Source of the DNA: Candidatus Heimdallarchaeota archaeon
GTDB lineage: Archaea > Asgardarchaeota > Heimdallarchaeia > JABLTI01
Direction of reading: 5' to 3'
Assembly: GCA_018238155.1 (NCBI GenBank)
Contig: JABCTZ010000036.1
Coordinates: 96,001 to 160,000 of the forward strand
Length of the DNA: 64,000 nucleotides
The position numbers were made by a program, and so were the translations under genes. Position 1 is the stretch's first letter. Every line of letters begins with the position of its first letter. Under the pieces are notes generated by a model. The model was not told where the DNA came from, did no database searches, and was given only the letters and a program-made list of their open reading frames with translations. This document shows, in pieces, positions 9,937 to 59,580 of the stretch.

Positions 9937-10344
9937 TTGAAATCCGTATACAGATTAGCAAAAAACTTTCATGCCGTTGTAGATAACGGTAGAACACATT
10001 CAATAGCAATTGATTTACCACCTAATAATGGTGGGGAAGATTTAGGCGCCACCGCGCTTGAATTATGCGTTATGGGATTATCTGGTTGCATTGGCACTAT
10101 TTTTGCAAAAATAGCTAAAAAAATGCGTTTAACAATCACTCATTTAGAGGTTGATCTTGAAGCATTCAAAGGACCTAGTGATCCAACCATTACCAAGATC
10201 ACAGCCAAAGTTTTTGTAACCTCTCCTGATGGTCTTGAAAAATTAAATAAATGTTTGGAACTAACACTTGCATCTTGTCCTGTTGGAGTAATTTTTACAA
10301 ATGCAAATATACCAACTGAAGTAACTTTAGAGAAAGTAGCATAA
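9937..10344 (+). CDS. OsmC/Ohr-like family protein (tandem paralog)
   Basis: GATALELCVMGLSGC ... ASCPV; shared NGRxxxIxIDxxPxxGG with the upstream copy. Confidence 0.85.
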   Translation: MKSVYRLAKNFHAVVDNGRTHSIAIDLPPNNGGEDLGATALELCVMGLSGCIGTIFAKIAKKMRLTITHLEVDLEAFKGPSDPTITKITAKVFVTSPDGLEKLNKCLELTLASCPVGVIFTNANIPTEVTLEKVA

Positions 10345-10461
10345 ATTATATACTTTCTTTTCCTTTCTTTTTGTCGATATTAATATGAAAGGTTTTTAAT
10401 GGTGGAGAACCAATAAACCCTAGAGCTAATTAAAAGATTAGTAAATAATGGTGTATTTATT

Positions 10462-11013
10462 ATGTCATTCGGCAGCATTTTGTTAGGCATGTTGGTTGGT
10501 GGAATATTTAGTACGGGTGCAATTATTGGTGCCACCTTCTTAGGACGTTTTGTTCCTTGGTGGGCTGTGCTCCTGATAGGTGCAGCTGGCTGTCTATTCG
10601 GTGGTTTAATTGCAGGAATATTCGCAAAAGGTATTGGTGCTGGAGCTTTAGCAGGATTACTCTCAGGATTGCTTGTCTTTCTAGGTGTATTTTTGTTTGT
10701 TTGGCTTTACTACAAATCAGTAGTAATATCTATGATAGCAAGCGCGAGTAATGTTTCTGAAATCGCAAATGGGTTTGTTGATTTGTTCGGTGCCGGTGGC
10801 ACTCCTGTTGGACAAGCTATGTCTGAGTGGATTACTAGTAATGTTCCTCAAACATCTGATATGGAAGCTTTTGCTAATAGCAACTTCGTTTTCTTTGGTT
10901 TAATTGTTGGCGCTATTTTTGGCGGACTAGCAAGTGTAGTAAATCTATTCACCGGACTCATTGGTGGTATGTTTTCTAGAAAGAAAAGCGACAAATATGA
11001 TTCTTACTATTAA
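10462..11013 (+). CDS. Gly-rich 4-TM membrane protein (DUF5518-like)
   Basis: GGLIAG / GALAGLLSG glycine-zipper TMs. Confidence 0.6.
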   Translation: MSFGSILLGMLVGGIFSTGAIIGATFLGRFVPWWAVLLIGAAGCLFGGLIAGIFAKGIGAGALAGLLSGLLVFLGVFLFVWLYYKSVVISMIASASNVSEIANGFVDLFGAGGTPVGQAMSEWITSNVPQTSDMEAFANSNFVFFGLIVGAIFGGLASVVNLFTGLIGGMFSRKKSDKYDSYY

Positions 11014-11023
11014 AAGAACATCT

Positions 11024-11060
11024 CCGCGGGAAATTCACTCGCGGTATTTCATTCTTTTTA
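11024..11060 (+). terminator. GC hairpin plus T-tract
   Basis: CCGCGGG-AAATTCA-CTCGCGG followed by TATTTCATTCTTTTT. Confidence 0.6.
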
Positions 11061-11144
11061 TTATTTTATAGCTAATAGTTTTTAATGATGTAATTAGAAA
11101 GTAATTGATATAGATTTTAGGTAAAAGTTCCAGGAGTATACAAA

Positions 11145-12200
11145 ATGAGAATTGTTTTTCTATACACAATTTCTAAAGATGCTTACGATTATCTTAAAGA
11201 GAATATTCCGGAGGATATAGAGATAATAGCTCGAATAAAAGAAGAATATTCAGGTAAACAACCAAATCAAGATGTCGAAATTATTGCTGCAACAAAAGAA
11301 GCTGAAATATTAATGGGTCCTTATGTTACTGAAGAAATTCTTGAACAAGCATCACCAAAAAATGGTGGAAAACTAAAATTAATTATCATTCCTTGGACAG
11401 GTATTGATAGACTCAATTTTACTCTATTGAGAAAATATCCCGTTGTAGTTGCGAATAGTCATGGGAATGCTCGAACTGTGGCTGAACATGCAATAGCTCT
11501 TCTTCTTACTGCTACAAAAAATATTATCCATCACGATAAATTGCTTAGAAAAGGTGATTGGGGTTCTAGGTTTAAGCATATGCCTTCAGTAAACATTTTT
11601 GGTAAGACTGTTGGGTTATTGGGTTATGGTGCTATTGGAATAGAATGTGCAAAAATTCTCAGAGGTTTTGATGTTGAAATTATTGGTTGTAGGAGAACCA
11701 TTGAAAAGTCAACTGAAGAGCAAAAAAAACTTGCTGAGAAAATCTACTCAATAAATGAATTAGAGGTATTTCTAAATGAATCAGATATAGTGATTAATTC
11801 TTTACCTCTCACACAAGATACAAGAGATATTCTTAGCAAAAGAGAATTTGAGTGGATGAAAGATGGAGTTATTATTGTCAATGTTGGAAGAGGTGCAACA
11901 ATAAATGAAGAAGCGATTTATAACGCAGTAAAAGAAGGAAAAGTGTTTGCAGCAGGGTTGGATCCACAGTGGAAATATCCACCAAGAGATAAAACTGGAG
12001 AAAGAGATCATACAGAGAAAAACTACCCCTCCAATTTTCCAATACATGAATTTGATCAAGTAGTTCTCAGTCCTCACCGGGCTGCAGATTTAACAGAGGG
12101 ATATGAAAGAAAACATTGGTTTGATGTGGTTGAAAATATTTTAAGAATATATAAAGGTGAAAAACCAACGAATATTGTTGATTTAAACTTAAGCTATTAA
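11145..12200 (+). CDS. D-isomer-specific 2-hydroxyacid dehydrogenase
   Basis: VAEHA, GLLGYGAIG (Rossmann), LPLT, NVGRG, GLD, SPHRA. Confidence 0.9.
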   Translation: MRIVFLYTISKDAYDYLKENIPEDIEIIARIKEEYSGKQPNQDVEIIAATKEAEILMGPYVTEEILEQASPKNGGKLKLIIIPWTGIDRLNFTLLRKYPVVVANSHGNARTVAEHAIALLLTATKNIIHHDKLLRKGDWGSRFKHMPSVNIFGKTVGLLGYGAIGIECAKILRGFDVEIIGCRRTIEKSTEEQKKLAEKIYSINELEVFLNESDIVINSLPLTQDTRDILSKREFEWMKDGVIIVNVGRGATINEEAIYNAVKEGKVFAAGLDPQWKYPPRDKTGERDHTEKNYPSNFPIHEFDQVVLSPHRAADLTEGYERKHWFDVVENILRIYKGEKPTNIVDLNLSY

Positions 12201-12228
12201 AAAAAAGATTGAAAAGAGCCAGTCAGCT

Positions 12229-15200
12229 TTAAACTGCTGGTTCTATTTCTAATTTTGATTTGGATCCATGACCGACCCAACGTTTTAGTATGTACTTTCC
12301 AACAAGGAATTTTATTAGTTCCATTAAGAGTGCAGCAAATATACAAATGCCCATGAGTAAGAACCAATCATAAAGCCCAATTGGCATACTATCAAAGATA
12401 GTATTATTGACACCAAATTCTGCTCCCATTGGAACATAAATGGCAATCATTTGCAGTCCAAGAGCTAATCCAACCGACATCCAAAGCCATTTGTTGTTGA
12501 ATGGATTCATTTTCAATGTTGTTCTTTCAAAACCTGAACGAGTGATAAAGACATTGAACATCTCAAATAAAACAGACATAGTAAAGTTCAATGTTCTTGC
12601 ATGTGCATACCATATTTGAGAACCTATCTGTGTTAACCCAGCTCCTCCGGCATCTAAGCTAGTATGCTTTGTAAATATTAGCGCATAGGATTCTATCCAT
12701 GTACCTTTGTATTTAGCTAAATTTTCTGCTAATGCTATCAAATCTGTTCCTAAGTAATCTCCAGAATTCTCATCATAGATTTCTGCTTGAAAATGAGCTT
12801 CACCAATATAACCTAAAGGAACAAAGACTATCATGCTTGCAGCGAAAGCTAATAAACCTGCAATTATCGAGAAGATATAAATATCTTTCATAAATCCTTC
12901 GTCTTTCTTTCTTGGAGGGTCACGCATTATACCTGCAAAGGGTGGGTCAACACTTAAAGCAATAGCAGGCAGCCCATCAGTTACTAGATTGATCCAAAGA
13001 ATTTGGATAGCTGTATAGGGTGACTTTAAACCTAAGAAAACAACACAAACAAAGACTGTTAGAATTTCATCGAAATTACTTGCGATAAGATATCTGATGA
13101 ACTTGAGCATATTTTGGAAAATTGTTCTTCCTCGTTCCACCGCAGTGACTATTGTTGCGAAATTATCATCTGCTAGAACCATCTGTGCAGCTTCTCGAGT
13201 AACATCTGTACCTTGAATACCCATCGCTATACCAATATCTGCTTTTTTGATTGCTGGAGCATCGTTTACTCCATCACCTGTGGTAGCAACTACATGACCT
13301 TTTTCTTGGAACATACTGACAATTCTGTGTTTATGTTCTGGACTCACTCTGGCAAAGATTGAAACATCTTCAATAATATCGTTTAATTCTTCGTTAGACA
13401 TTGCTTCTAATTCAACACCAGTAACAGTTAACCATTTATCACCTTGAATTAGACCAATATCCTTAGCAATTGCTTCAGCAGTTATTTGTTGATCTCCTGT
13501 AACCATTACTGCAACAATACCCGCAGTCCGACATCTTTCCAAAGCACCTTTGACTTCAGGTCTTGCCGGATCTATTAAACCAACTAACCCAAGGAACACA
13601 AGATCTGTTTCGATATTTGCTTCAAGTTCAGATAGAAAGTCATCTTCATCAACTTTAATCAGTCTTTCATCAACAACTCTGTAAGCAAGTGCTAAGACTC
13701 GTAATGCCCTTGAAGCCATCTCATCATTCATTTCAAGTATCTTTTCTTTAACTCCTTCAGCTAACGGAGACACTTTGCCATCAATAGAAATGAAACTACA
13801 ATGTTCTAACAAAACTGGAGGTGAGCCTTTAGAATAGGCAATGAGATTTTCTTCATGTTCCTTTGAATCAGCAAATCGATTAATAGTGGTCATTCGTTTT
13901 CGTTGAGAATCAAAGAATATTTCTGCTTCTCTTTTATATGATGTTTCATCCAGTAAACCTGCTTTTCTTGCAAGCACCATTAATGAAACTTCAGTAGGAT
14001 CACCAATAATTTCAATCTCATCTGTTTCCTTGTCATAATGTACAATTGAATTATTGCAAAGCAACGAAGTTCGAGCAATCTTTTCTAGCTCGGGTGATTG
14101 TAATGGATTAACTGTTTTACCATCCTCTACAAATTCACCAATGGGTCTGTATCCTTCACCAGTAATTTTAATTAGATGATTTAGTGTTCTGACTTCTACA
14201 ACAGTCATTTCATTTTTAGTTAAAGTACCTGTTTTATCACTACAAATAATATCTACAATACCCAATGTTTCAACTGCCGGTAAACGGGAAACAATGGCAT
14301 TTTGTTTTGCCATCATCCTAACACCGATTGCATAAGTGAGTGTAATAGCTGCTGGCATCCCTTCTGGAATAGCTGAAACTGCTAATGCAATAGCATTTTC
14401 TAAAGCTTCACCCCAATGTTCCCAGCTCAGATCATGAAGTAAAGTAGCTGCGAAAACAATTGCACAAACTACTACTATTGTTAAACCAAGCACTTTACCA
14501 AGTTTATCAAGATTCTTTTGGAGGGGTGTTGCTTCTTCCTTTTCGCTTTGCATTAATGCAGCGATTTTGCCCATTTCAGTTTCCATACCTGTATCAACAA
14601 CAATCGCTTTTGCTCTTCCATAAGTTATTGTCGTACCCATAAAAAGCATATTGCGTCGATCACCAACAACAGCTTCTATGGCTATAAGCTGTTTAGAGTT
14701 TTTACTAAGGCTAACAGATTCACCTGTCAATGCACTCTCATCAACTTTCAAACTGGTAGATTCGAGCAACCTCATGTCTGCAGGAACCTTTTCACCTGCC
14801 TCAATAAGAACAATGTCTCCTACAACAAGGTCTTTCGAATCAATTATGTGTTCATTGTTATTTCGAATAACTCGAACTTCCTTGCTTACCATTTTCTTAA
14901 GTTCTTCTAATGACTTTTCTGCTTGGAACTCTTGAATAAAACCAATTAAACCGTTAATAATAACGATAGCAAAAATTACTCCTGCTTCAATATATTCTTC
15001 AAAAGCAATTGAAACAATTGCAGCAATAAATAGAAGGCCGATTAAGATATCAAAAAACTGACTTAGAAACAGAACTATGAGACTGGTTTTTCCTTTTTCA
15101 ACTAAAACGTTTAGCCCATATTTTTCTACTCTATATGCAATCTCTTTGTCTTCTAACCCATTAATTGGATTGACGTCTAGTTTTTCTATGACTTCTCCGG

Positions 15201-51108: not shown

Positions 51109-52872
51109 CTAGAACTTCCCTTTTATATTGACAAAATCGTCTTCAGAGTAGTTATTTATCTTACTAAAATTATGTATTTTCCATACGTTAATAATTTCAT
51201 CAAATGTTAATTCTTTGAGAATTTTACTTAATATTACTCTCATTAATACTTCCTTTGTATAAGGTCTCTTAGAATCTTGAAATGCAATTGCTTTTAATAA
51301 GTTCTTAGAAATTCTAGAATTAAGTGCAGTACAACCAAAAAGAGCTTCATCGTATGTTTCAAAACCGAGGTAATAACAAGTATCATCCAGCATAACAGGT
51401 TGATTGTTAATGGGACTAATTAAAGCGAAGATTGGTTCTTTATACATAGCACCAATGGCTATTTTGAATGGACGAAAGGCATATTCCCCAATACCAAAAA
51501 TTGAAAATGGAGCTTTGTTTTTATAGATAGAAGATTTTCTTTTGGTGAAGTATTCAATTTTTGAGTTCAGATAGTCCCAAATCTTCGGATATTTTGATTC
51601 AATGTATGCCGTATCTTCGTTCAACTTTTTGTGTGGAATGATTATTCTTCTTTTCGTTTCTATTATTTCAAATGTTCTCAAGTTTGATCCTTTTAACAAA
51701 GGATAGAGTAATTTCTGTTCGAAATCTAAAATTTCTCCTAATTTGTTCGTTAATTGATGATCTTTGTTAAAAGACAGCTCCAATACTTTCGAGCAATCAT
51801 GTTTTACTCCTTGTCGCCATACATGTTTTGATTTACCATCAAAAACGTTGACTTTTTTATACTTCTCAAAATCTGAGACAAATTTGTTATCTATCCAACC
51901 AAATTTTCTAATTAGAATTTCAGGTGCATCCAAATCATAAACCTTGCAATAGTGTGCTTCATTTGAAGCATTTAAATCAAAAATAAATAATGATGCATTG
52001 CAAGATTTCCCAAATTCTTTCGTAGCATCAATTTGATATTGTTGTAAATTGCTTATTTTCTTGTCAGAGGTTAGAAGGCTTTTTGTGATATTTCTTATTA
52101 CGGTGTTTTTACAGAGCAAAGCTACTTTACCTTCACAACTGGAGAAATTATCGATTATTTTTTGAATTATTGATTCAGCAATATCGAAATTGCTCTTTCC
52201 TGTTAAAGCTTCAAGCCCAACTAACTTCATCTTATTGCTTTTATTTGGAAGATTACTTGAATTCAGAGAGCTTAATTCAGCATTTGTGATCCACGGGGGA
52301 TTTCCAACTATCAGAATGGGTGTATGCTCTAGAGAACTAATTAGCTCCTTAAAATCGTGACTAAAAATATTATCTCTATGAACAAATATATCTAATTCTG
52401 GTATTGGTTCCTCTGTATATCTTTGTAAAAGAGAATTGATACCAAAATTCCAAATGCGCTCTTTTTGAATTTCTATTCCATAAACAGCTCCCGCATTTGG
52501 AAAATACTCCGATATTTGAAGAATAAAATTACCATCACCAAATGTTGGCTCAATGATGAGCCCAGGTTGGATGCCTGTCAATGTAATTAAATTCAATACT
52601 TTTTTCACTAAACTTGGTGGAGTTTGGATATCTGCCCATTCATTACTTTTAGGTATTATTTTTGAATTCTTGCCATGTGACTTCGTTAAGATTAGATGGC
52701 TCTTGAATTCAAGTAATTCTTCTTGAGAGCTGAAAAAATTAGTTATTCGTGTTAGACCTCTGAAGATTTCATTTGCTTTTTCGTAATTTGTTGATTTGTC
52801 AAAAAGTGATATAATAGTTGAAAAATATTTTCTTATATCCTCTTCATTCAAATTTACGAATTCTCCTGTCAT
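51109..52872 (-). CDS. N6-adenine/N4-cytosine DNA methyltransferase (gamma-type order, motif I then NPPW) with TaqI-like C-terminal TRD
   Basis: QTP, IEPTFGDGNF (motif I), GIEI, VGNPPW (motif IV), WRQGVKHD. Confidence 0.85.
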   Translation of the reverse strand: MTGEFVNLNEEDIRKYFSTIISLFDKSTNYEKANEIFRGLTRITNFFSSQEELLEFKSHLILTKSHGKNSKIIPKSNEWADIQTPPSLVKKVLNLITLTGIQPGLIIEPTFGDGNFILQISEYFPNAGAVYGIEIQKERIWNFGINSLLQRYTEEPIPELDIFVHRDNIFSHDFKELISSLEHTPILIVGNPPWITNAELSSLNSSNLPNKSNKMKLVGLEALTGKSNFDIAESIIQKIIDNFSSCEGKVALLCKNTVIRNITKSLLTSDKKISNLQQYQIDATKEFGKSCNASLFIFDLNASNEAHYCKVYDLDAPEILIRKFGWIDNKFVSDFEKYKKVNVFDGKSKHVWRQGVKHDCSKVLELSFNKDHQLTNKLGEILDFEQKLLYPLLKGSNLRTFEIIETKRRIIIPHKKLNEDTAYIESKYPKIWDYLNSKIEYFTKRKSSIYKNKAPFSIFGIGEYAFRPFKIAIGAMYKEPIFALISPINNQPVMLDDTCYYLGFETYDEALFGCTALNSRISKNLLKAIAFQDSKRPYTKEVLMRVILSKILKELTFDEIINVWKIHNFSKINNYSEDDFVNIKGKF

Positions 52873-54984: not shown

Positions 54985-55350
54985 GTGAATGAAATTAATA
55001 ACTTTAACTCAATTTTAAAGTTAAGTGTAACTGAGAACCATAAACTGCTTTACATTAATTTACCAAAGGAGCTTATACAAACGCTGAATTTGACCGAAAA
55101 TGATTTACTTGAATATGATATTAGAGGTAAACAGTTCTATTGTCGGAAAAAAGGTTCAGAAGCAATGCTACGAAATACAAGTAACAATCTCTTTGCTGGT
55201 TTAAAAGTTGAACGAACTATAACACGGAATAATACTATTCTACGAACGAATCTTCCGAAAGAAGTAGCTCAACCATTAGCTATTACGAAAGGAGATGTGG
55301 TTGAAATCTCTTTAGAGAAGAAAGTAATAATCGGAAAAAAAATTTACTAA
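54985..55350 (+). CDS. Tandem AbrB/SpoVT (swapped-hairpin) domain protein
   Basis: Two INLPKE...LNL..ND.LE / TNLPKEVA..LAI.KGD.VE repeats. Confidence 0.75.
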   Translation: MNEINNFNSILKLSVTENHKLLYINLPKELIQTLNLTENDLLEYDIRGKQFYCRKKGSEAMLRNTSNNLFAGLKVERTITRNNTILRTNLPKEVAQPLAITKGDVVEISLEKKVIIGKKIY

Positions 55351-55377
55351 AAATGAATATTCACAGGAGAAAATAGA

Positions 55378-58077
55378 TTGCGAATACGAAACCGAATTAT
55401 GGTTACATTCATTGTTTTGTTGATTCTTCCATCGGTAGTAATGATTACTATTTCTAGTAGTCGAATAAGTTTACTATCAAAGGAGAATGCCAATGACTCA
55501 TCCGCTGCTCTTTTAAAGGAAGAGTTAGAACATCTTGATCGATTGTCTTCAGATGCGTCTCAGAAAATTAATGAGTTGTTTAACCAAATCGTTGCAGAAG
55601 TAACGATGCTTGACAATTATACAGAACGACTTTTCAATGGTGATATTCCCATTGATTCTTATCAATCATATTGGTGGGATTCAGCTTTAGAATTCTCAGA
55701 AACAGGACGAACAATACCTGGCATTGGGTATAATGCTGATTATGATTCTGACATCTCATTTGATACAAGTTGTTATTACATTCCAAGAGATAAACTCACT
55801 AATTTACCTGGATCTGACCCACACGCTTGGACACCAGAATTAAAAACTCTCTTGGATAATTCCTCAAATATGGATATTGTTTTTAAGAATCTTCACGAAG
55901 CAAATCCTAATTATATTTGGATTTACGCTGCTTTTGCTGATTCAGATTATTCTTTATTTAGAAATTATCCATATGATACGATGATTTGGACTCAAGAAGA
56001 TGAAGACGGTAATCCAGTTCCTGCTGCTGATGACTGGGACCCTCTTGAACAAGATTGGTATCAAAATGCTGCTTCTATCGCTGATAATAGAACGGCTTTC
56101 ACTGCTCCATATTTTGACCCCGTAGGATTGATTCTCTCAGTGGGACGTCCAGTGAGATTTACTAATGGAACTCTCTTTGGAGTAGTTAGTGTGGACATTA
56201 TGATTCAGACTATGCAACAAGATATTCTTGATCTTGATGTTAGCACAAATGGTTATGCTTTTCTTATTGATAGCAATGGTGATACTATTACACACCCTGA
56301 TTTAGTTGATGATTTTGTATCAATTGAAGAGTTAGAAATGTCTGATGCAACAAATAGTGAACAAACTGCTTTTACAACTATTATCAACGATATGAAGTCT
56401 GGAGAAGCTGATATTGCTGATTTCACAAAAAATGGCGATAAATGGTACATCTCTTATCAATCAATAGATGCTGCAGGTTATTCCTTAGCATTGATAGTTC
56501 CTGAAGCAGATATTGTAGAACCGATAGAAGAATTAAGAGCTGAAATCCTTCGAAGAAGTACAAATAACATACTAATTTCTGTTGGATTATTGATTCTTGC
56601 TCTAGCCTTGATTATTTTTGTTTCAGTAAGTGTTTCACGAAGAACAGTACAACCTATAGAAGATTTCATTGATTTAACTGAAAGAATTGCTAAAGGTGAT
56701 TTATCTCGAGACCTCGATGATGATGAAACGATTCCAAGAGAAATTCGTGGTTTGCATGAAGCGCTTGATGGGCTATTAACTGCCTTGCGATTTGGGAATT
56801 CGGACTATTATGGTGGAAATCTTGATTTAGCATACAACAACTATCTGAAAGCTCTCAAACTATTTGAAACAACTAAGGATGATGCCGGTATTGGTGTTTG
56901 TTTGAATAACCTTGGAAATGTTTATCGAGAATGGGGCGAAATGGATCAAGCCAAAGATTTCTATGCAAAAGCTATCACTGTTGCAGAAAAACTCAACGAT
57001 AAGGCCAGTTTAGCTTCAAGATACAATAATTTTGGTTTAACCTTATTAGATGTTGGTAACGTTGAAGAAGCACAAAAATATCTTGAAAAAGCATTAACTC
57101 TAAATGAGAGTTTAGGAAATATTCGTGGAAGAGTTCTTTGTTTGAATAATCTTGGTTTAGCACACTTTAAGAAAGGCTCAATAAAACTTGCATACGGTTT
57201 CTATGAAGATGCCTTAAAACTAGCCGAAGAAGATGATTTCCTAAGAGGAGCAGCACATAGTCAACTAAATCTTGCTGTTTTCTATCTAGAACAATTTGAT
57301 GTTCTAACCGCTAAAGAATACTTCAAGAAAGCCCTAGAAAGTTCTCAAATGGTAAATGACGTTCTCCTCGAAGAAGAAGTTTTACAACGATTCCAATTAA
57401 TTGAGAACGAACTCGGTGAAGATGCAACTGAAGAACAAATTAAGGATACATTGGCAAGATTGCGAGGTTCTGCTTCTCCACAAAAAACTGTGCAATATGT
57501 TCTTGACTACAGTGGTTCAATGAGTGGTTCACGTAGCAGAGCTTCAATTAGAGGTTCTCTTGACCTTCTAAAGACCGCTCTAAAAGACAAAGACACTGTT
57601 GGTATTATTACATTCTTTACTCAAAGTCACACTATTATGAACTTTACACAAGTAAGGAATAATCGTCAACACATTCAACAAACGTTTAAACGTTTAACTA
57701 GACCAAATGGCAATACTGCTATGTGGGATGCTATAATTGATGGCATTGAGAATTTGTCTCAAGTGGGTGGAACACAAAGATGGTTGGTGTTGTTAACAGA
57801 TGGAGAAGATAACTCCAGTAAAAAAACTGCTACTGATGTGAAGCGCATCATTAAGAAGTTGAAATATCAATTGAATTTAGTAATTATTAGTGTTGGAAAC
57901 ATCGGAAATGATGAATTGGAACTAATGGACTTTACTAAAACGCTTAATGGTACTTTCATCAAAGTTGATGATACTAAGAATGTTCACAAAGCAATTGAAA
58001 AAGCATTCAAGACCGTTGGACAATTGATGTCTCAAGCACAAGTATCAGTCGAAGGACTGGTATTGGATGATTTGTGA
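55378..58077 (+). CDS. Membrane receptor: TM-dCache_1-TM-HAMP-TPR-vWA
   Basis: TM1; dCache (DWY..A, TAPYFD, GVVSVDI, GYAFLIDSNG..ITHP); TM2; HAMP (QPI..F......IAKGDL...EI..L); TPRs (CLNNLG, YNNFG); vWA with full MIDAS (DYSGS, T in GNTA, TDG). CAGGAG RBS before TTG. Confidence 0.88.
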   Translation: MRIRNRIMVTFIVLLILPSVVMITISSSRISLLSKENANDSSAALLKEELEHLDRLSSDASQKINELFNQIVAEVTMLDNYTERLFNGDIPIDSYQSYWWDSALEFSETGRTIPGIGYNADYDSDISFDTSCYYIPRDKLTNLPGSDPHAWTPELKTLLDNSSNMDIVFKNLHEANPNYIWIYAAFADSDYSLFRNYPYDTMIWTQEDEDGNPVPAADDWDPLEQDWYQNAASIADNRTAFTAPYFDPVGLILSVGRPVRFTNGTLFGVVSVDIMIQTMQQDILDLDVSTNGYAFLIDSNGDTITHPDLVDDFVSIEELEMSDATNSEQTAFTTIINDMKSGEADIADFTKNGDKWYISYQSIDAAGYSLALIVPEADIVEPIEELRAEILRRSTNNILISVGLLILALALIIFVSVSVSRRTVQPIEDFIDLTERIAKGDLSRDLDDDETIPREIRGLHEALDGLLTALRFGNSDYYGGNLDLAYNNYLKALKLFETTKDDAGIGVCLNNLGNVYREWGEMDQAKDFYAKAITVAEKLNDKASLASRYNNFGLTLLDVGNVEEAQKYLEKALTLNESLGNIRGRVLCLNNLGLAHFKKGSIKLAYGFYEDALKLAEEDDFLRGAAHSQLNLAVFYLEQFDVLTAKEYFKKALESSQMVNDVLLEEEVLQRFQLIENELGEDATEEQIKDTLARLRGSASPQKTVQYVLDYSGSMSGSRSRASIRGSLDLLKTALKDKDTVGIITFFTQSHTIMNFTQVRNNRQHIQQTFKRLTRPNGNTAMWDAIIDGIENLSQVGGTQRWLVLLTDGEDNSSKKTATDVKRIIKKLKYQLNLVIISVGNIGNDELELMDFTKTLNGTFIKVDDTKNVHKAIEKAFKTVGQLMSQAQVSVEGLVLDDL

Positions 58078-58089
58078 GGTTGTGAAAAG

Positions 58090-59580
58090 ATGACTATAAC
58101 CGACTTTTTCAAAAGAAGAAGCATTAGAACAAATATAATGGTAAGCTTTTTCCTATTGTCCATCCTCTTCATGGGTGGAATTGGTGGTATCTCTCACCTA
58201 CTTGTACAACGATCTGGTGATCAAACGATTACAGACAGTACAGCCGCATTAGAGGAACAAATAACTGCAAACATTGCAATTACTGCAGAGAAAAATGCAG
58301 AAATCATCAACGAGAAACTTTCTAGTGCACAAGCAATGGTAGACTTTTTGGCAAGTGAATTGGAATATGTTTTCAGTGATGAAAATCGATATGGTGATCG
58401 CGATGTTTACTATGACCTTTGGTTTGATAATACAACTTCGTTACATTCAACACATTCACCCATTGATACTCATTGGGATAGTGATTATCAAGTAGATCTT
58501 AGCTGGGACTATTCAAGCTATTATTACTCCCACTCTGATGCCGCTGACTATGATACCTTGACACTAAAACAAAATCAAACTTTGGAAACAGTAGCAAATA
58601 TGGATTATGCATTCCAAAATGTTCATGATAATGCCCCCGATTTTAGATGGTTATACATTGTTCTGCCATTTGATGGAGCAGGAATTGATTTGTTTATCAA
58701 TTATCCAGGGAGTTGTGTTGCAGGAACAGATGCTGAAAGACTCGCTGAACCTTGGATTCCAAGCGAAACCGAAGATTGGTATACAGAAGTTCTTGCAGGT
58801 GATGGTGACATTGTTTTCACTGAGCCATATTTTGATCCAATTGATGGTATTCCTTTGATTACAATCGGACGTAGTGTAAGCTTCTCAAATGGTACATTAA
58901 TCGGTGTTATTTTTGGAGATATCTCGATTGAAACAATGGTTGACAAAATCTTAGCTGTTACAGTATTAGAGACTGGTTACGCTTCTTTAGTTACAAGTAG
59001 CGGCTCAGTTGTTGCCCATCCTGAATTGATAATTGAGGAAGGAGAAGATGAATACCCAGACATCTCTAATGTAGAGGCAAATAGTGACAGCACTTCTGCT
59101 CTCACAAGTGCCCAATTAACTGCAATCTTTTCCGGTGTTTCTGGACTACTACGTTATACACGAGATGCTCAAGAGAGATTTCTTGCTTATCATCCTGTTG
59201 GCAAAGGGAACTACATTAGCCTCATTATCTTGCCTGTTGATGAAGCATTAGCTGGCATTGAACCTGTTGAGGAAAGAATGACTGCTGCAGTTGCTAGTAC
59301 AACAACGATTATTTGGATAATTGCTGGAGCGAGTTTAGCTATTGGCATAGCTATTGGTTTAACTCTTACAGCCTATATCACTAAACCATTTAATCATCTG
59401 ATAGAGGTTGCTCGTTCTCTCTCAACAAGGAGAGCGCGAAGAGACATCATGGACGGACTTATGACAGCAATTGATCCTAAATTGCTTGAAAGCGAAGATG
59501 AATTAGGAGAACTTACTCGAGCATTCAAAGGAATGATAGATTCTGTTCAACAAGCGGAGCTAGAGAAGAATGATGATTAA
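58090..59580 (+). CDS. Membrane sensor: TM-dCache_1-TM-HAMP with no output domain
   Basis: Paralogous dCache (DWY, TEPYFD, GVIFGDI, GYASLV...VVAHP), TM2, HAMP (KPF..L, DELGELTRAF..M), then stop. Confidence 0.85.
   Translation: MTITDFFKRRSIRTNIMVSFFLLSILFMGGIGGISHLLVQRSGDQTITDSTAALEEQITANIAITAEKNAEIINEKLSSAQAMVDFLASELEYVFSDENRYGDRDVYYDLWFDNTTSLHSTHSPIDTHWDSDYQVDLSWDYSSYYYSHSDAADYDTLTLKQNQTLETVANMDYAFQNVHDNAPDFRWLYIVLPFDGAGIDLFINYPGSCVAGTDAERLAEPWIPSETEDWYTEVLAGDGDIVFTEPYFDPIDGIPLITIGRSVSFSNGTLIGVIFGDISIETMVDKILAVTVLETGYASLVTSSGSVVAHPELIIEEGEDEYPDISNVEANSDSTSALTSAQLTAIFSGVSGLLRYTRDAQERFLAYHPVGKGNYISLIILPVDEALAGIEPVEERMTAAVASTTTIIWIIAGASLAIGIAIGLTLTAYITKPFNHLIEVARSLSTRRARRDIMDGLMTAIDPKLLESEDELGELTRAFKGMIDSVQQAELEKNDD

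Follow-up and report, generated by a model that had tools for sequence, protein, structure and literature searches.

Paired double-Cache receptors ending in TPR and vWA domains in Asgard archaea, giant viruses, and protists: a possible amine sensor

What does a transmembrane receptor sense, and how does it signal, when no catalytic domain follows its input module? The question is raised by a locus in a 64,000-nucleotide stretch (about 32% G+C; here called the window) of contig JABCTZ010000036.1, assembly GCA_018238155.1, from Candidatus Heimdallarchaeota archaeon. Three co-directional open reading frames (ORFs) encode an AbrB protein (P0001), a receptor that we call R1 (P0002), and a partner sensor, R2 (P0003), with intergenic gaps of 27 and 12 bp, as a preliminary description of this DNA had stated. 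The Cache/HAMP receptors known from prokaryotes act on a kinase, on a cyclase or phosphodiesterase, on a phosphatase, or on the chemotaxis array. R1 ends in protein-docking modules only. We lean toward the reading that R1 and R2 form a heteromeric transmembrane amine sensor that signals by metal-dependent protein recruitment. No description of this receptor architecture, in Asgard archaea or in giant viruses, was found in the literature, and as far as it could be searched, R1 and R2 represent an undescribed receptor family.

Pfam searches and an AlphaFold2 model of R1, built on 33 homologs with a mean predicted local distance difference test score of 82, confirmed the domain order that had been proposed for the gene: dCache, transmembrane (TM) helix, HAMP, TPR, and vWA. 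The dCache_1 match (PF02743) scored 55.5 bits against a gathering cutoff of 45, with MCP-like_PDC_1 also matched; TPR_12 was matched with an E value of 4.8e-24, and VWA with 53.6 bits (cutoff, 23.8; E value, 4.1e-14) over residues 708 to 873. The HAMP match (PF00672) was weak, with 18.3 bits against a cutoff of 25 (E value, 0.003; residues 419 to 448). At the family level the domain has support: 17 of the 33 members match it, at best with an E value of 4e-13, a eukaryotic member matches it at 1e-11, and the model has a helix-linker-helix in this place. In the model, the N-terminal TM helix continues into a long dCache helix, which is followed by two alpha/beta Cache modules. A single continuous helix (residues 376 to 438) comprises TM2 and the first HAMP helix; after a linker comes a second helix (residues 454 to 479), from which the TPR array starts directly, and the alpha/beta vWA fold behind it ends in a disordered tail. 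The positions given earlier for HAMP (about 56620 to 56790) and for the start of the vWA domain (about 57481) agree with this layout, as they fall on residues 415 to 471 and 702. R1 has two TM segments, and the dCache domain therefore lies outside the cell and the TPR-vWA part inside.

Scans with Pfam and NCBIfam found no kinase, GGDEF/cyclase, EAL, phosphatase/PP2C, or methyl-accepting chemotaxis protein (MCP) domain in R1 or R2. Library matches with kinase names covered the TPR or HAMP regions only and were far below their cutoffs, so that the absence of an enzymatic or MCP output, already claimed from the translations, is borne out. Because the catalytic or MCP output that defines the described receptor classes is missing, R1 belongs to none of them. 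Its closest counterparts on the input side are PctA, PctB, and PctC of Pseudomonas aeruginosa and Mlp24 of Vibrio, which have the same extracellular double Cache between two TM segments, followed by HAMP. Their output, however, is an MCP domain acting on CheA, whereas that of R1 consists of TPR and vWA; and the Pseudomonas receptors are homodimers, whereas R1 and R2 are a conserved pair of paralogs, one of which carries the output. The best solved relatives of the R1 Cache domain were PctB (2.7e-13), PctA (2.4e-12), CACHD1 (1.9e-11), and alpha2delta-1 (3e-7). The alpha2delta/CACHD1 proteins also join a dCache_1 of the amino-acid-sensor lineage to a vWA domain with a metal ion-dependent adhesion site (MIDAS), and Foldseek aligns about 560 to 610 columns. 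In that class, however, dCache_1 carries the vWA domain as an insert, the ectodomain is entirely extracellular, and there is no HAMP or TPR, while the vWA domain of R1 is C-terminal and cytoplasmic, which places R1 outside the class. The resemblance to alpha2delta that had been pointed out found no specific support: the R1 vWA domain has no detectable sequence match to that of alpha2delta, and the Cache similarity is no stronger than to PctA and PctB. BatA, BatB, and BatC of the aerotolerance operon in Bacteroides and Leptospira are, like R1, membrane vWA/TPR proteins without enzymatic domains, but they have no Cache/HAMP input and stand in another gene context.

The MIDAS described earlier as intact is indeed complete, with D710, S712, and S714 (57505 to 57519), T780, and D808 on a Rossmann-like fold, and none of the five varies in any of the 69 homologs compared, of which 44 are Asgard, 15 viral, and 10 eukaryotic. 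The best solved relatives of this domain are the CLCA1 vWA domain and 8s05. In the TPR array, the Asn ladder (N511 and N551) and R548 are kept in the Asgard, viral, and eukaryotic groups. The closest solved folds are the TPR domains of LGN and kinesin light chain (Foldseek; 21 to 24% identity). LGN/Pins and kinesin light chain share with R1 an Asn-rich concave groove for extended peptides, but they are soluble eukaryotic scaffolds rather than parts of receptors, and the likeness lies in the fold and the class of repeat (TPR_12), a class that bacteria commonly have too. At the HAMP-TPR junction, R471, G473, Y477, G480, and A485 are kept in all three groups, and N474 is kept in viral members and invariant in the Asgard set; the junction motif LRFGN..YY.G...NN.GN, which had been noted earlier, proved to be the signature of the family. 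A short motif (hydrophobic-x-hydrophobic-E-x-hydrophobic) lies at or near the very C terminus in all three lineages and is disordered in the model of the window R1. The invariant MIDAS strengthens the case for recruitment as the output, and these data as a whole favor a predicted output in which proteins are bound in a metal-dependent way, without pointing to any one partner. With docking modules as its only end and a metal site unchanged in the sampled members, R1 would follow a recruitment-based receptor logic that is typical of eukaryotes.

A word-indexed search returned about 73 full-length R1 clusters with 31 to 94% identity, all with the same Pfam set. Those with names all came from Asgard metagenome-assembled genomes (MAGs) of Heimdall-, Hod-, Thor-, Hermod-, and Promethearchaeota, and existing annotations read only "tetratricopeptide repeat protein" or "cache domain-containing protein." In a scan of one genome per prokaryotic species, 77 full-length loci were found, in Asgard-labeled MAGs save for one contig labeled Bathyarchaeia, and the non-Asgard matches were partial and covered the vWA domain only. 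Within the phylum, a match with an E value of ≤1e-40 was present in 122 of 400 genomes (36 of 85 genera). In the genome to which the window belongs, which measures 4.08 Mb and is about 91% complete, R1 and R2 occur once each, so the pair is single copy there. Across the searches, named full-length prokaryotic homologs are all from Asgard archaea except those on contigs labeled Zixibacteria or Bathyarchaeia, and about ten metagenomic clusters have no assignment. Near-identical R1 copies lie on contigs labeled "candidate division Zixibacteria" (P0009, 75% identity) and "Bathyarchaeia" (L009, 71%); these labels are probably binning or labeling errors rather than signs of transfer. We also observed, in one Asgard family (f20), many genomes with a Cache-less variant, an ORF of about 580 codons (e.g., G233:C40:5710-7233 and G199:C11:45235-46758) that matches R1 residues of about 398 to 895 only (TM2, HAMP, TPR, and vWA). 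Full-length copies, about 876 amino acids (aa) long, are present elsewhere in this family.

An exhaustive HMMER search of 1.84 billion representatives added many R1 homologs with 23 to 30% identity, aligned end to end, on nonarchaeal contigs. Three of these contigs have the gene content of giant viruses: one (L086) carries Bro-N, PARP, RNA ligase, and papain-like protease genes beside the R1-like gene; another (L087) encodes both subunits of ribonucleotide reductase as well as PolB, PolX, and UCH; and the third (L088) has genes for two aminoacyl-tRNA synthetases and an IF-2-like factor along with many that lack known relatives. Three more members (L089 to L091) were found in IMG/VR, on contigs named as giant-virus MAGs; they were retrieved with an alignment as the query, and a single-protein query returned none. 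A Cache-only R2-like gene of about 500 to 570 codons adjoins the R1-like gene in all six giant-virus loci, with R2 before R1 in three.

Eukaryotic homologs of about 1,520 to 1,690 aa were found in EukProt and in MMETSP, the latter a collection of transcripts from cultured protists. Their C-terminal 930 or so residues align to all of R1 (residues 26 to 892) and their N-terminal half is an R2-like Cache module, which makes them fusions of R2 to R1, about 1,600 aa long, in which about four TM segments are predicted. One of them lies on a 45.6-kb contig (L095) with genes for an ARL2-binding BART protein, CCDC81, a FAST-kinase-like protein, OST3/OST6, an RWD protein, and a G-beta-like WD40 protein as its neighbors. 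The preliminary description had supposed relatives in ciliates and other protists, and homologs well beyond generic TPR matches do exist in eukaryotes. A survey of eukaryotic dCache_1 proteins reported a vWA domain inserted in the Cache domain in all of them (Gumerov et al. 2022, PMC8915833); the fusions differ from that description, as their vWA domain is not inserted. On L095, we noticed that the region of the fusion gene (10001 to 14842) has about 47% G+C, against 37 to 38% in the flanking eukaryotic genes, and that the gene is one uninterrupted ORF of 1,613 codons.

R2 has TM segments at residues 16 to 34 and 406 to 424 by hydropathy and a HAMP region at residues 427 to 488 (Pfam, 22.4 bits against a cutoff of 25), and no output domain. 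In all of the 57 Asgard loci with enough sequence it stands directly downstream of R1, at a distance that ranges from a few to about 100 bp, so that what had been called a partner sensor in the window is a truly conserved partner. All trees were computed with LG+G4 in quick mode or with FastTree, and they contain compositional outliers among the viral and eukaryotic rows as well as long branches. In a joint tree of R1 and R2, from the ectodomain to HAMP, the Asgard R2, the viral R2, and the eukaryotic N-terminal halves form one R2 clan with a support of 99. Since this clan spans all three lineages, the duplication that gave R1 and R2 predates their split. Among the Asgard sequences, the branching of R1 mirrors that of R2. 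The strict adjacency, the viral pairs, the eukaryotic fusion, the congruent subtrees, and the ancient duplication together argue that the two proteins act as a heteromer, probably a heterodimer, and the natural fusion in eukaryotes predicts that the R1 and R2 subunits work together.

An exception and a variation of R2 were seen. On a Thorarchaeota chromosome (CP070658; locus L043, 12852 to 14801), the 649-aa gene product encoded after R1 matches R2 at its N terminus only and has lost the pocket motif, and no decarboxylase gene is nearby. In the sister clade of the window's, R2 has about 665 aa and a C-terminal HEAT_2/HEAT_PBS fusion (L006, 10752 to 12764; L013, 4784 to 6781); a HEAT_PBS gene is also found near the module on the contig of P0131.

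We then compared the ligand pockets with characterized ones. The amino-acid motif dCache_1AA comprises, in PctA numbering, Y121, R126, W128, Y129, Y144, and D173 (Gumerov et al. 2022, PMC8915833). At these positions R1 reads W, Q, W, Y, Y, and D; that is, it keeps the last four, with Y245 and D273 as the equivalents of Y144 and D173, and has Trp and Gln in place of Y121 and R126. In R2, the equivalents of Y144 and D173 are kept and R126 is replaced by Glu. Neither protein of the window thus has the amino-acid motif, which is complete (YDPRCRxWY...Y...D) in the viral R1 and several Asgard paralogs. Elsewhere in the Asgard archaea, R1 proteins linked to a decarboxylase gene mostly have Glu at the R126 position, otherwise another residue than Arg (Gln, Ser, Tyr, or Phe), and in nearly all R2 proteins the residue is Glu, Asp, or Gln. 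The residues for the amino group and the aromatic lid are retained in both pockets, in the window and in every relative with a linked decarboxylase. The Asgard loci that keep the Arg and whose context is known (L050, the P0131 contig, and L096) are all three without a decarboxylase. As they belong to at least two separate parts of the tree, they give at least two independent contrasts in the same direction.

A similar change is on record. According to Cerna-Vargas et al. (2023, PMC10589655), amine-specific Cache domains arose from amino-acid sensors by losing the carboxylate clamp and keeping the amine-binding Asp, and the dCache_1AM receptors PctD, McpX, and PacA show the same kind of pocket change as R1 and R2. 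Compared at the Asp and the two aromatic positions that the dCache_1AM motif retains, R1 keeps D273, W227, and Y245, and it loses the carboxylate-binding Arg. From the loss of the clamp and the retention of the Asp we infer that the ligand of R1 and R2 is an amine, probably of the agmatine or polyamine class. In archaea, that study reports dCache_1AM domains from Halobacteriota alone, and the outputs joined to them are limited to kinase, MCP, cyclase, or phosphatase domains.

The gene neighborhoods, of which six distant ones were read gene by gene and 73 were surveyed with tblastn, point to the same class of compounds. A gene for a SpeA-like arginine decarboxylase adjoins R1/R2 in 40 of the 42 loci with enough sequence. 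In the window it is the gene after R2 (P0004), whose product scored below the cutoffs of both SpeA models (NF003763, 339.9 bits against 369; TIGR01273, 320 against 624) and carries the pyridoxal phosphate (PLP)-lysine motif YPIKVN, a GGG motif, and the TCDSDG motif (CDSD); we take it as a predicted SpeA-like arginine decarboxylase. The decarboxylase gene occurs in at least four arrangements: downstream on the same strand (Thorarchaeota and the window clade), downstream in convergent orientation (L005), upstream in divergent orientation (the Heimdall/Hod clade), and 4.7 kb upstream (L006). Adjacency that persists through so many arrangements argues for selection on the linkage and not for an inherited gene order. 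The decarboxylase link and the matching pocket change suggest agmatine and polyamines as candidate ligands. An acidic tail of the decarboxylase had been considered as a ligand of the MIDAS or the TPR groove and was dropped, as the tail is not conserved in other loci.

A second recurrent neighbor, in 37 of 45 loci with enough sequence, encodes a cytoplasmic beta-propeller protein without TM segments, which resembles the propellers of FG-GAP, BBS2, and Itfg2 proteins and has zinc-finger or winged-helix-like tails. The AbrB gene, which had been counted as part of the module, is found in 6 of 73 loci (L007 to L012), all in the window's own clade (at least 68% identity), and is better seen as a clade-specific addition. 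The MoxR/AAA partner proposed earlier was present in no neighborhood examined, whether read or surveyed. In two distant loci, a small GTPase gene (Arf/Ras/Roc type) follows the pair as the first to third gene downstream (L005, 14965 to 15624; L006, 12872 to 13471); Asgard genomes hold many such genes, and their nearness to the receptor pair may be due to chance.

How the pair might work can be outlined from these data. Both dCache pockets would hold the amino group of the ligand with the residues kept for it (Asp273 and Tyr245 in R1) under an aromatic lid, and with the carboxylate-clamping Arg replaced, the predicted ligand is a decarboxylated amino acid or a polyamine, such as agmatine, putrescine, or cadaverine. 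This class fits the products expected of the adjacent SpeA-like decarboxylase and, in the window clade, of the LysA/ODC-like one. Upon binding, TM2 would carry the signal to a HAMP bundle made up of both R1 and R2, beyond which only R1 extends. As the second HAMP helix enters the first TPR helix through the LRFGN junction, switching of the HAMP bundle would reorient the TPR solenoid and the vWA domain. No catalysis would follow; instead, the TPR groove with its Asn ladder and the Mg2+-dependent MIDAS would bind or release cytosolic proteins in a regulated manner. Candidate partners are the FG-GAP/BBS2-like beta-propeller protein, adjacent in most Asgard lineages, a HEAT-repeat protein, AbrB in the window clade, and the decarboxylase.

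Several points weigh against this reading. The contrast between pocket state and decarboxylase rests on three Arg-type loci only, and most decarboxylase-linked loci are from related Thorarchaeota and hence not independent. The window R1 has Gln at the decisive position, its close relatives have Tyr or Phe, and most clades have Glu, so the ligand of the window receptor may differ. Viral and eukaryotic members have no decarboxylase gene nearby on the contigs examined, and the amine link, if real, is thus confined to Asgard members. An ortholog of the beta-propeller gene is absent near the window module, and a search of the genome gave weak, repeat-level matches only. Pfam HAMP is below its cutoff in the window R1. 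Architecture, topology, pairing, linkage, pocket states, the invariant MIDAS, and the presence in three lineages are observed, whereas heteromer formation, ligand class, and recruitment output are inferred from them.

The nearest alternative keeps the mechanism and changes the ligand: the pair could sense the substrate of the decarboxylase (arginine, lysine, or ornithine) or another amino acid instead of an amine. The top matches to PctA, PctB, and Mlp24 place the Cache domain in the amino-acid-sensor lineage, the complete motif is present in viral R1, in a subset of Asgard type B, and in P0127, P0137, and P0139, and Gln225 of R1 could still hydrogen-bond a carboxylate. We nevertheless regard sensing of an amino acid as rather improbable in the decarboxylase-linked loci, where R1 as well as R2 have another residue for the clamping Arg, mostly an acidic one, which would repel a carboxylate, and the loci that keep the Arg are those without the decarboxylase. 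It is somewhat less probable again that R1 and R2 are independent homodimers, with R2 as a truncated decoy or modulator or as a separate sensor and with adjacency reflecting co-regulation. HAMP receptors are usually homodimers, and bacteria have dCache-HAMP proteins that stand alone and lack an output (Atlas clusters), but independence sits badly with an adjacency that is never broken in the 57 Asgard loci, the giant-virus pairs, the eukaryotic fusion, the congruent subtrees, and the ancient duplication.

Finally, R1 could be a membrane-anchored vWA/TPR scaffold, of the BatA/BatB type or from a conflict or defense system, with the Cache domain serving for localization only. TPR and vWA do occur in Bat aerotolerance proteins, NCBIfam gives weak BatA/BatC matches, and vWA domains are found in NTP-dependent conflict systems. 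However, the Bat matches are far under their cutoffs (22.5 bits against 380 and 19.9 against 175), PADLOC returns generic TPR models only, the surveyed neighborhoods hold no conserved NTPase, MoxR, or effector gene, and dCache-TM-HAMP is a canonical signal-input module, here with a conserved ligand pocket; we consider a mere scaffold very unlikely. A heteromeric amine sensor with recruitment as its output remains the reading toward which we lean.

The distribution of the family raises the question of its origin. In a tree of 69 R1 sequences (LG+G4), three clans were found: a giant-virus clan, a eukaryotic clan (support, 100), and an Asgard clan (support, 99), which splits into type A, with the window, and type B, with the second pair of one Heimdall genome. 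When 50 further representatives were added, 10 were placed within or next to the Asgard clan, including a long branch just outside it, about 25 joined the viral clan, and 6 joined the eukaryotic clan; the other 9 formed two unnamed groups on the virus/eukaryote side (P0172, P0180, and P0207; P0155, P0160, P0161, P0162, P0205, and P0248). No bacterial clan was recognized in this expanded tree, in which the two unnamed groups leave room for one. With R2 as the root, eukaryotic and viral R1 are sister to Asgard type B (support, 99) and so nested within the Asgard sequences. However, a single Asgard R1 clade was not rejected by the approximately unbiased test (P = 0.27), and Asgard sequences form a single clade in the R2 half, so the trees do not settle the direction of transfer. 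A tentative scenario, which we think doubtful enough to be offered as one possibility, is that the pair arose in Asgard archaea, reached the eukaryotic stem by descent or early transfer, and was fused there to a four-TM receptor, and that giant viruses later captured an unfused or re-split pair. If true, the family would be an Asgard-derived prototype of eukaryote-style signaling, in which a ligand outside controls the assembly of a scaffold inside and not an enzyme. Its presence in Asgard archaea, protists, and giant viruses is relevant to the question of how the archaeal ancestor of eukaryotes was equipped for signaling and to the exchange of genes between giant viruses and their hosts.

The features of the window are collected in Table 1. 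R1 starts with a TTG codon, which aligns with the Met start of homolog P0011. The HEAT_PBS protein encoded upstream of the module is a candidate cytosolic partner, as a lead only.

Table 1. Position and basis of the receptor module, its parts, and flanking genes (positions count from the first nucleotide of the window)
Feature	Position	Strand	Basis or remark
HEAT_PBS repeat protein, 203 aa	53061-53672	+	Pfam HEAT_2, E value 1.3e-43
AbrB/SpoVT-type protein P0001, two tandem domains, 121 aa	54985-55350	+	Pfam PF04014, 37.5 bits against a cutoff of 24.7, E value 2.3e-9
R1 (P0002), 899-aa receptor: TM1, dCache_1, TM2, HAMP, 5 TPR, vWA (MIDAS)	55378-58077	+	ORF, Pfam, model
R1 TM1, residues 7-25	55396-55452	+	Hydropathy
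R1 extracellular dCache_1, residues ~30-395	55465-56562	+	Pfam; Foldseek matches to dCache chemoreceptors
R1 pocket segment WDPLEQDWY, residues 220-228	56035-56061	+	Alignment to PctA
R1 TM2, residues 398-416	56569-56625	+	Hydropathy; continuous helix in model
R1 HAMP-like helix-linker-helix, residues 419-479	56632-56814	+	Runs unbroken into junction LRFGN..YY.G
R1 TPR array, five helix pairs and cap, residues 482-697	56821-57468	+	Conserved Asn ladder N511, N551, and R548
R1 cytoplasmic vWA, residues 703-886	57484-58035	+	Pfam VWA, model, MIDAS
R1 C-terminal motif VSVEGL, residues 889-894	58042-58059	+	Hydrophobic-x-hydrophobic-E-x-hydrophobic, then acidic tail
R2 (P0003), 496-aa partner sensor: TM, dCache_1, TM, HAMP	58090-59580	+	Pfam, hydropathy
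Predicted SpeA-like PLP-dependent arginine decarboxylase P0004, 607 aa	59618-61441	+	NCBIfam NF003763, PLP motifs
Second PLP decarboxylase, LysA/ODC type, 479 aa	61634-63073	+	Next to the module in the window clade only

Farther upstream, a 587-aa ORF on the reverse strand (51109 to 52872) has no match in Pfam or NCBIfam and a strong PADLOC match to a type II DNA methyltransferase (E value, 1.5e-111).

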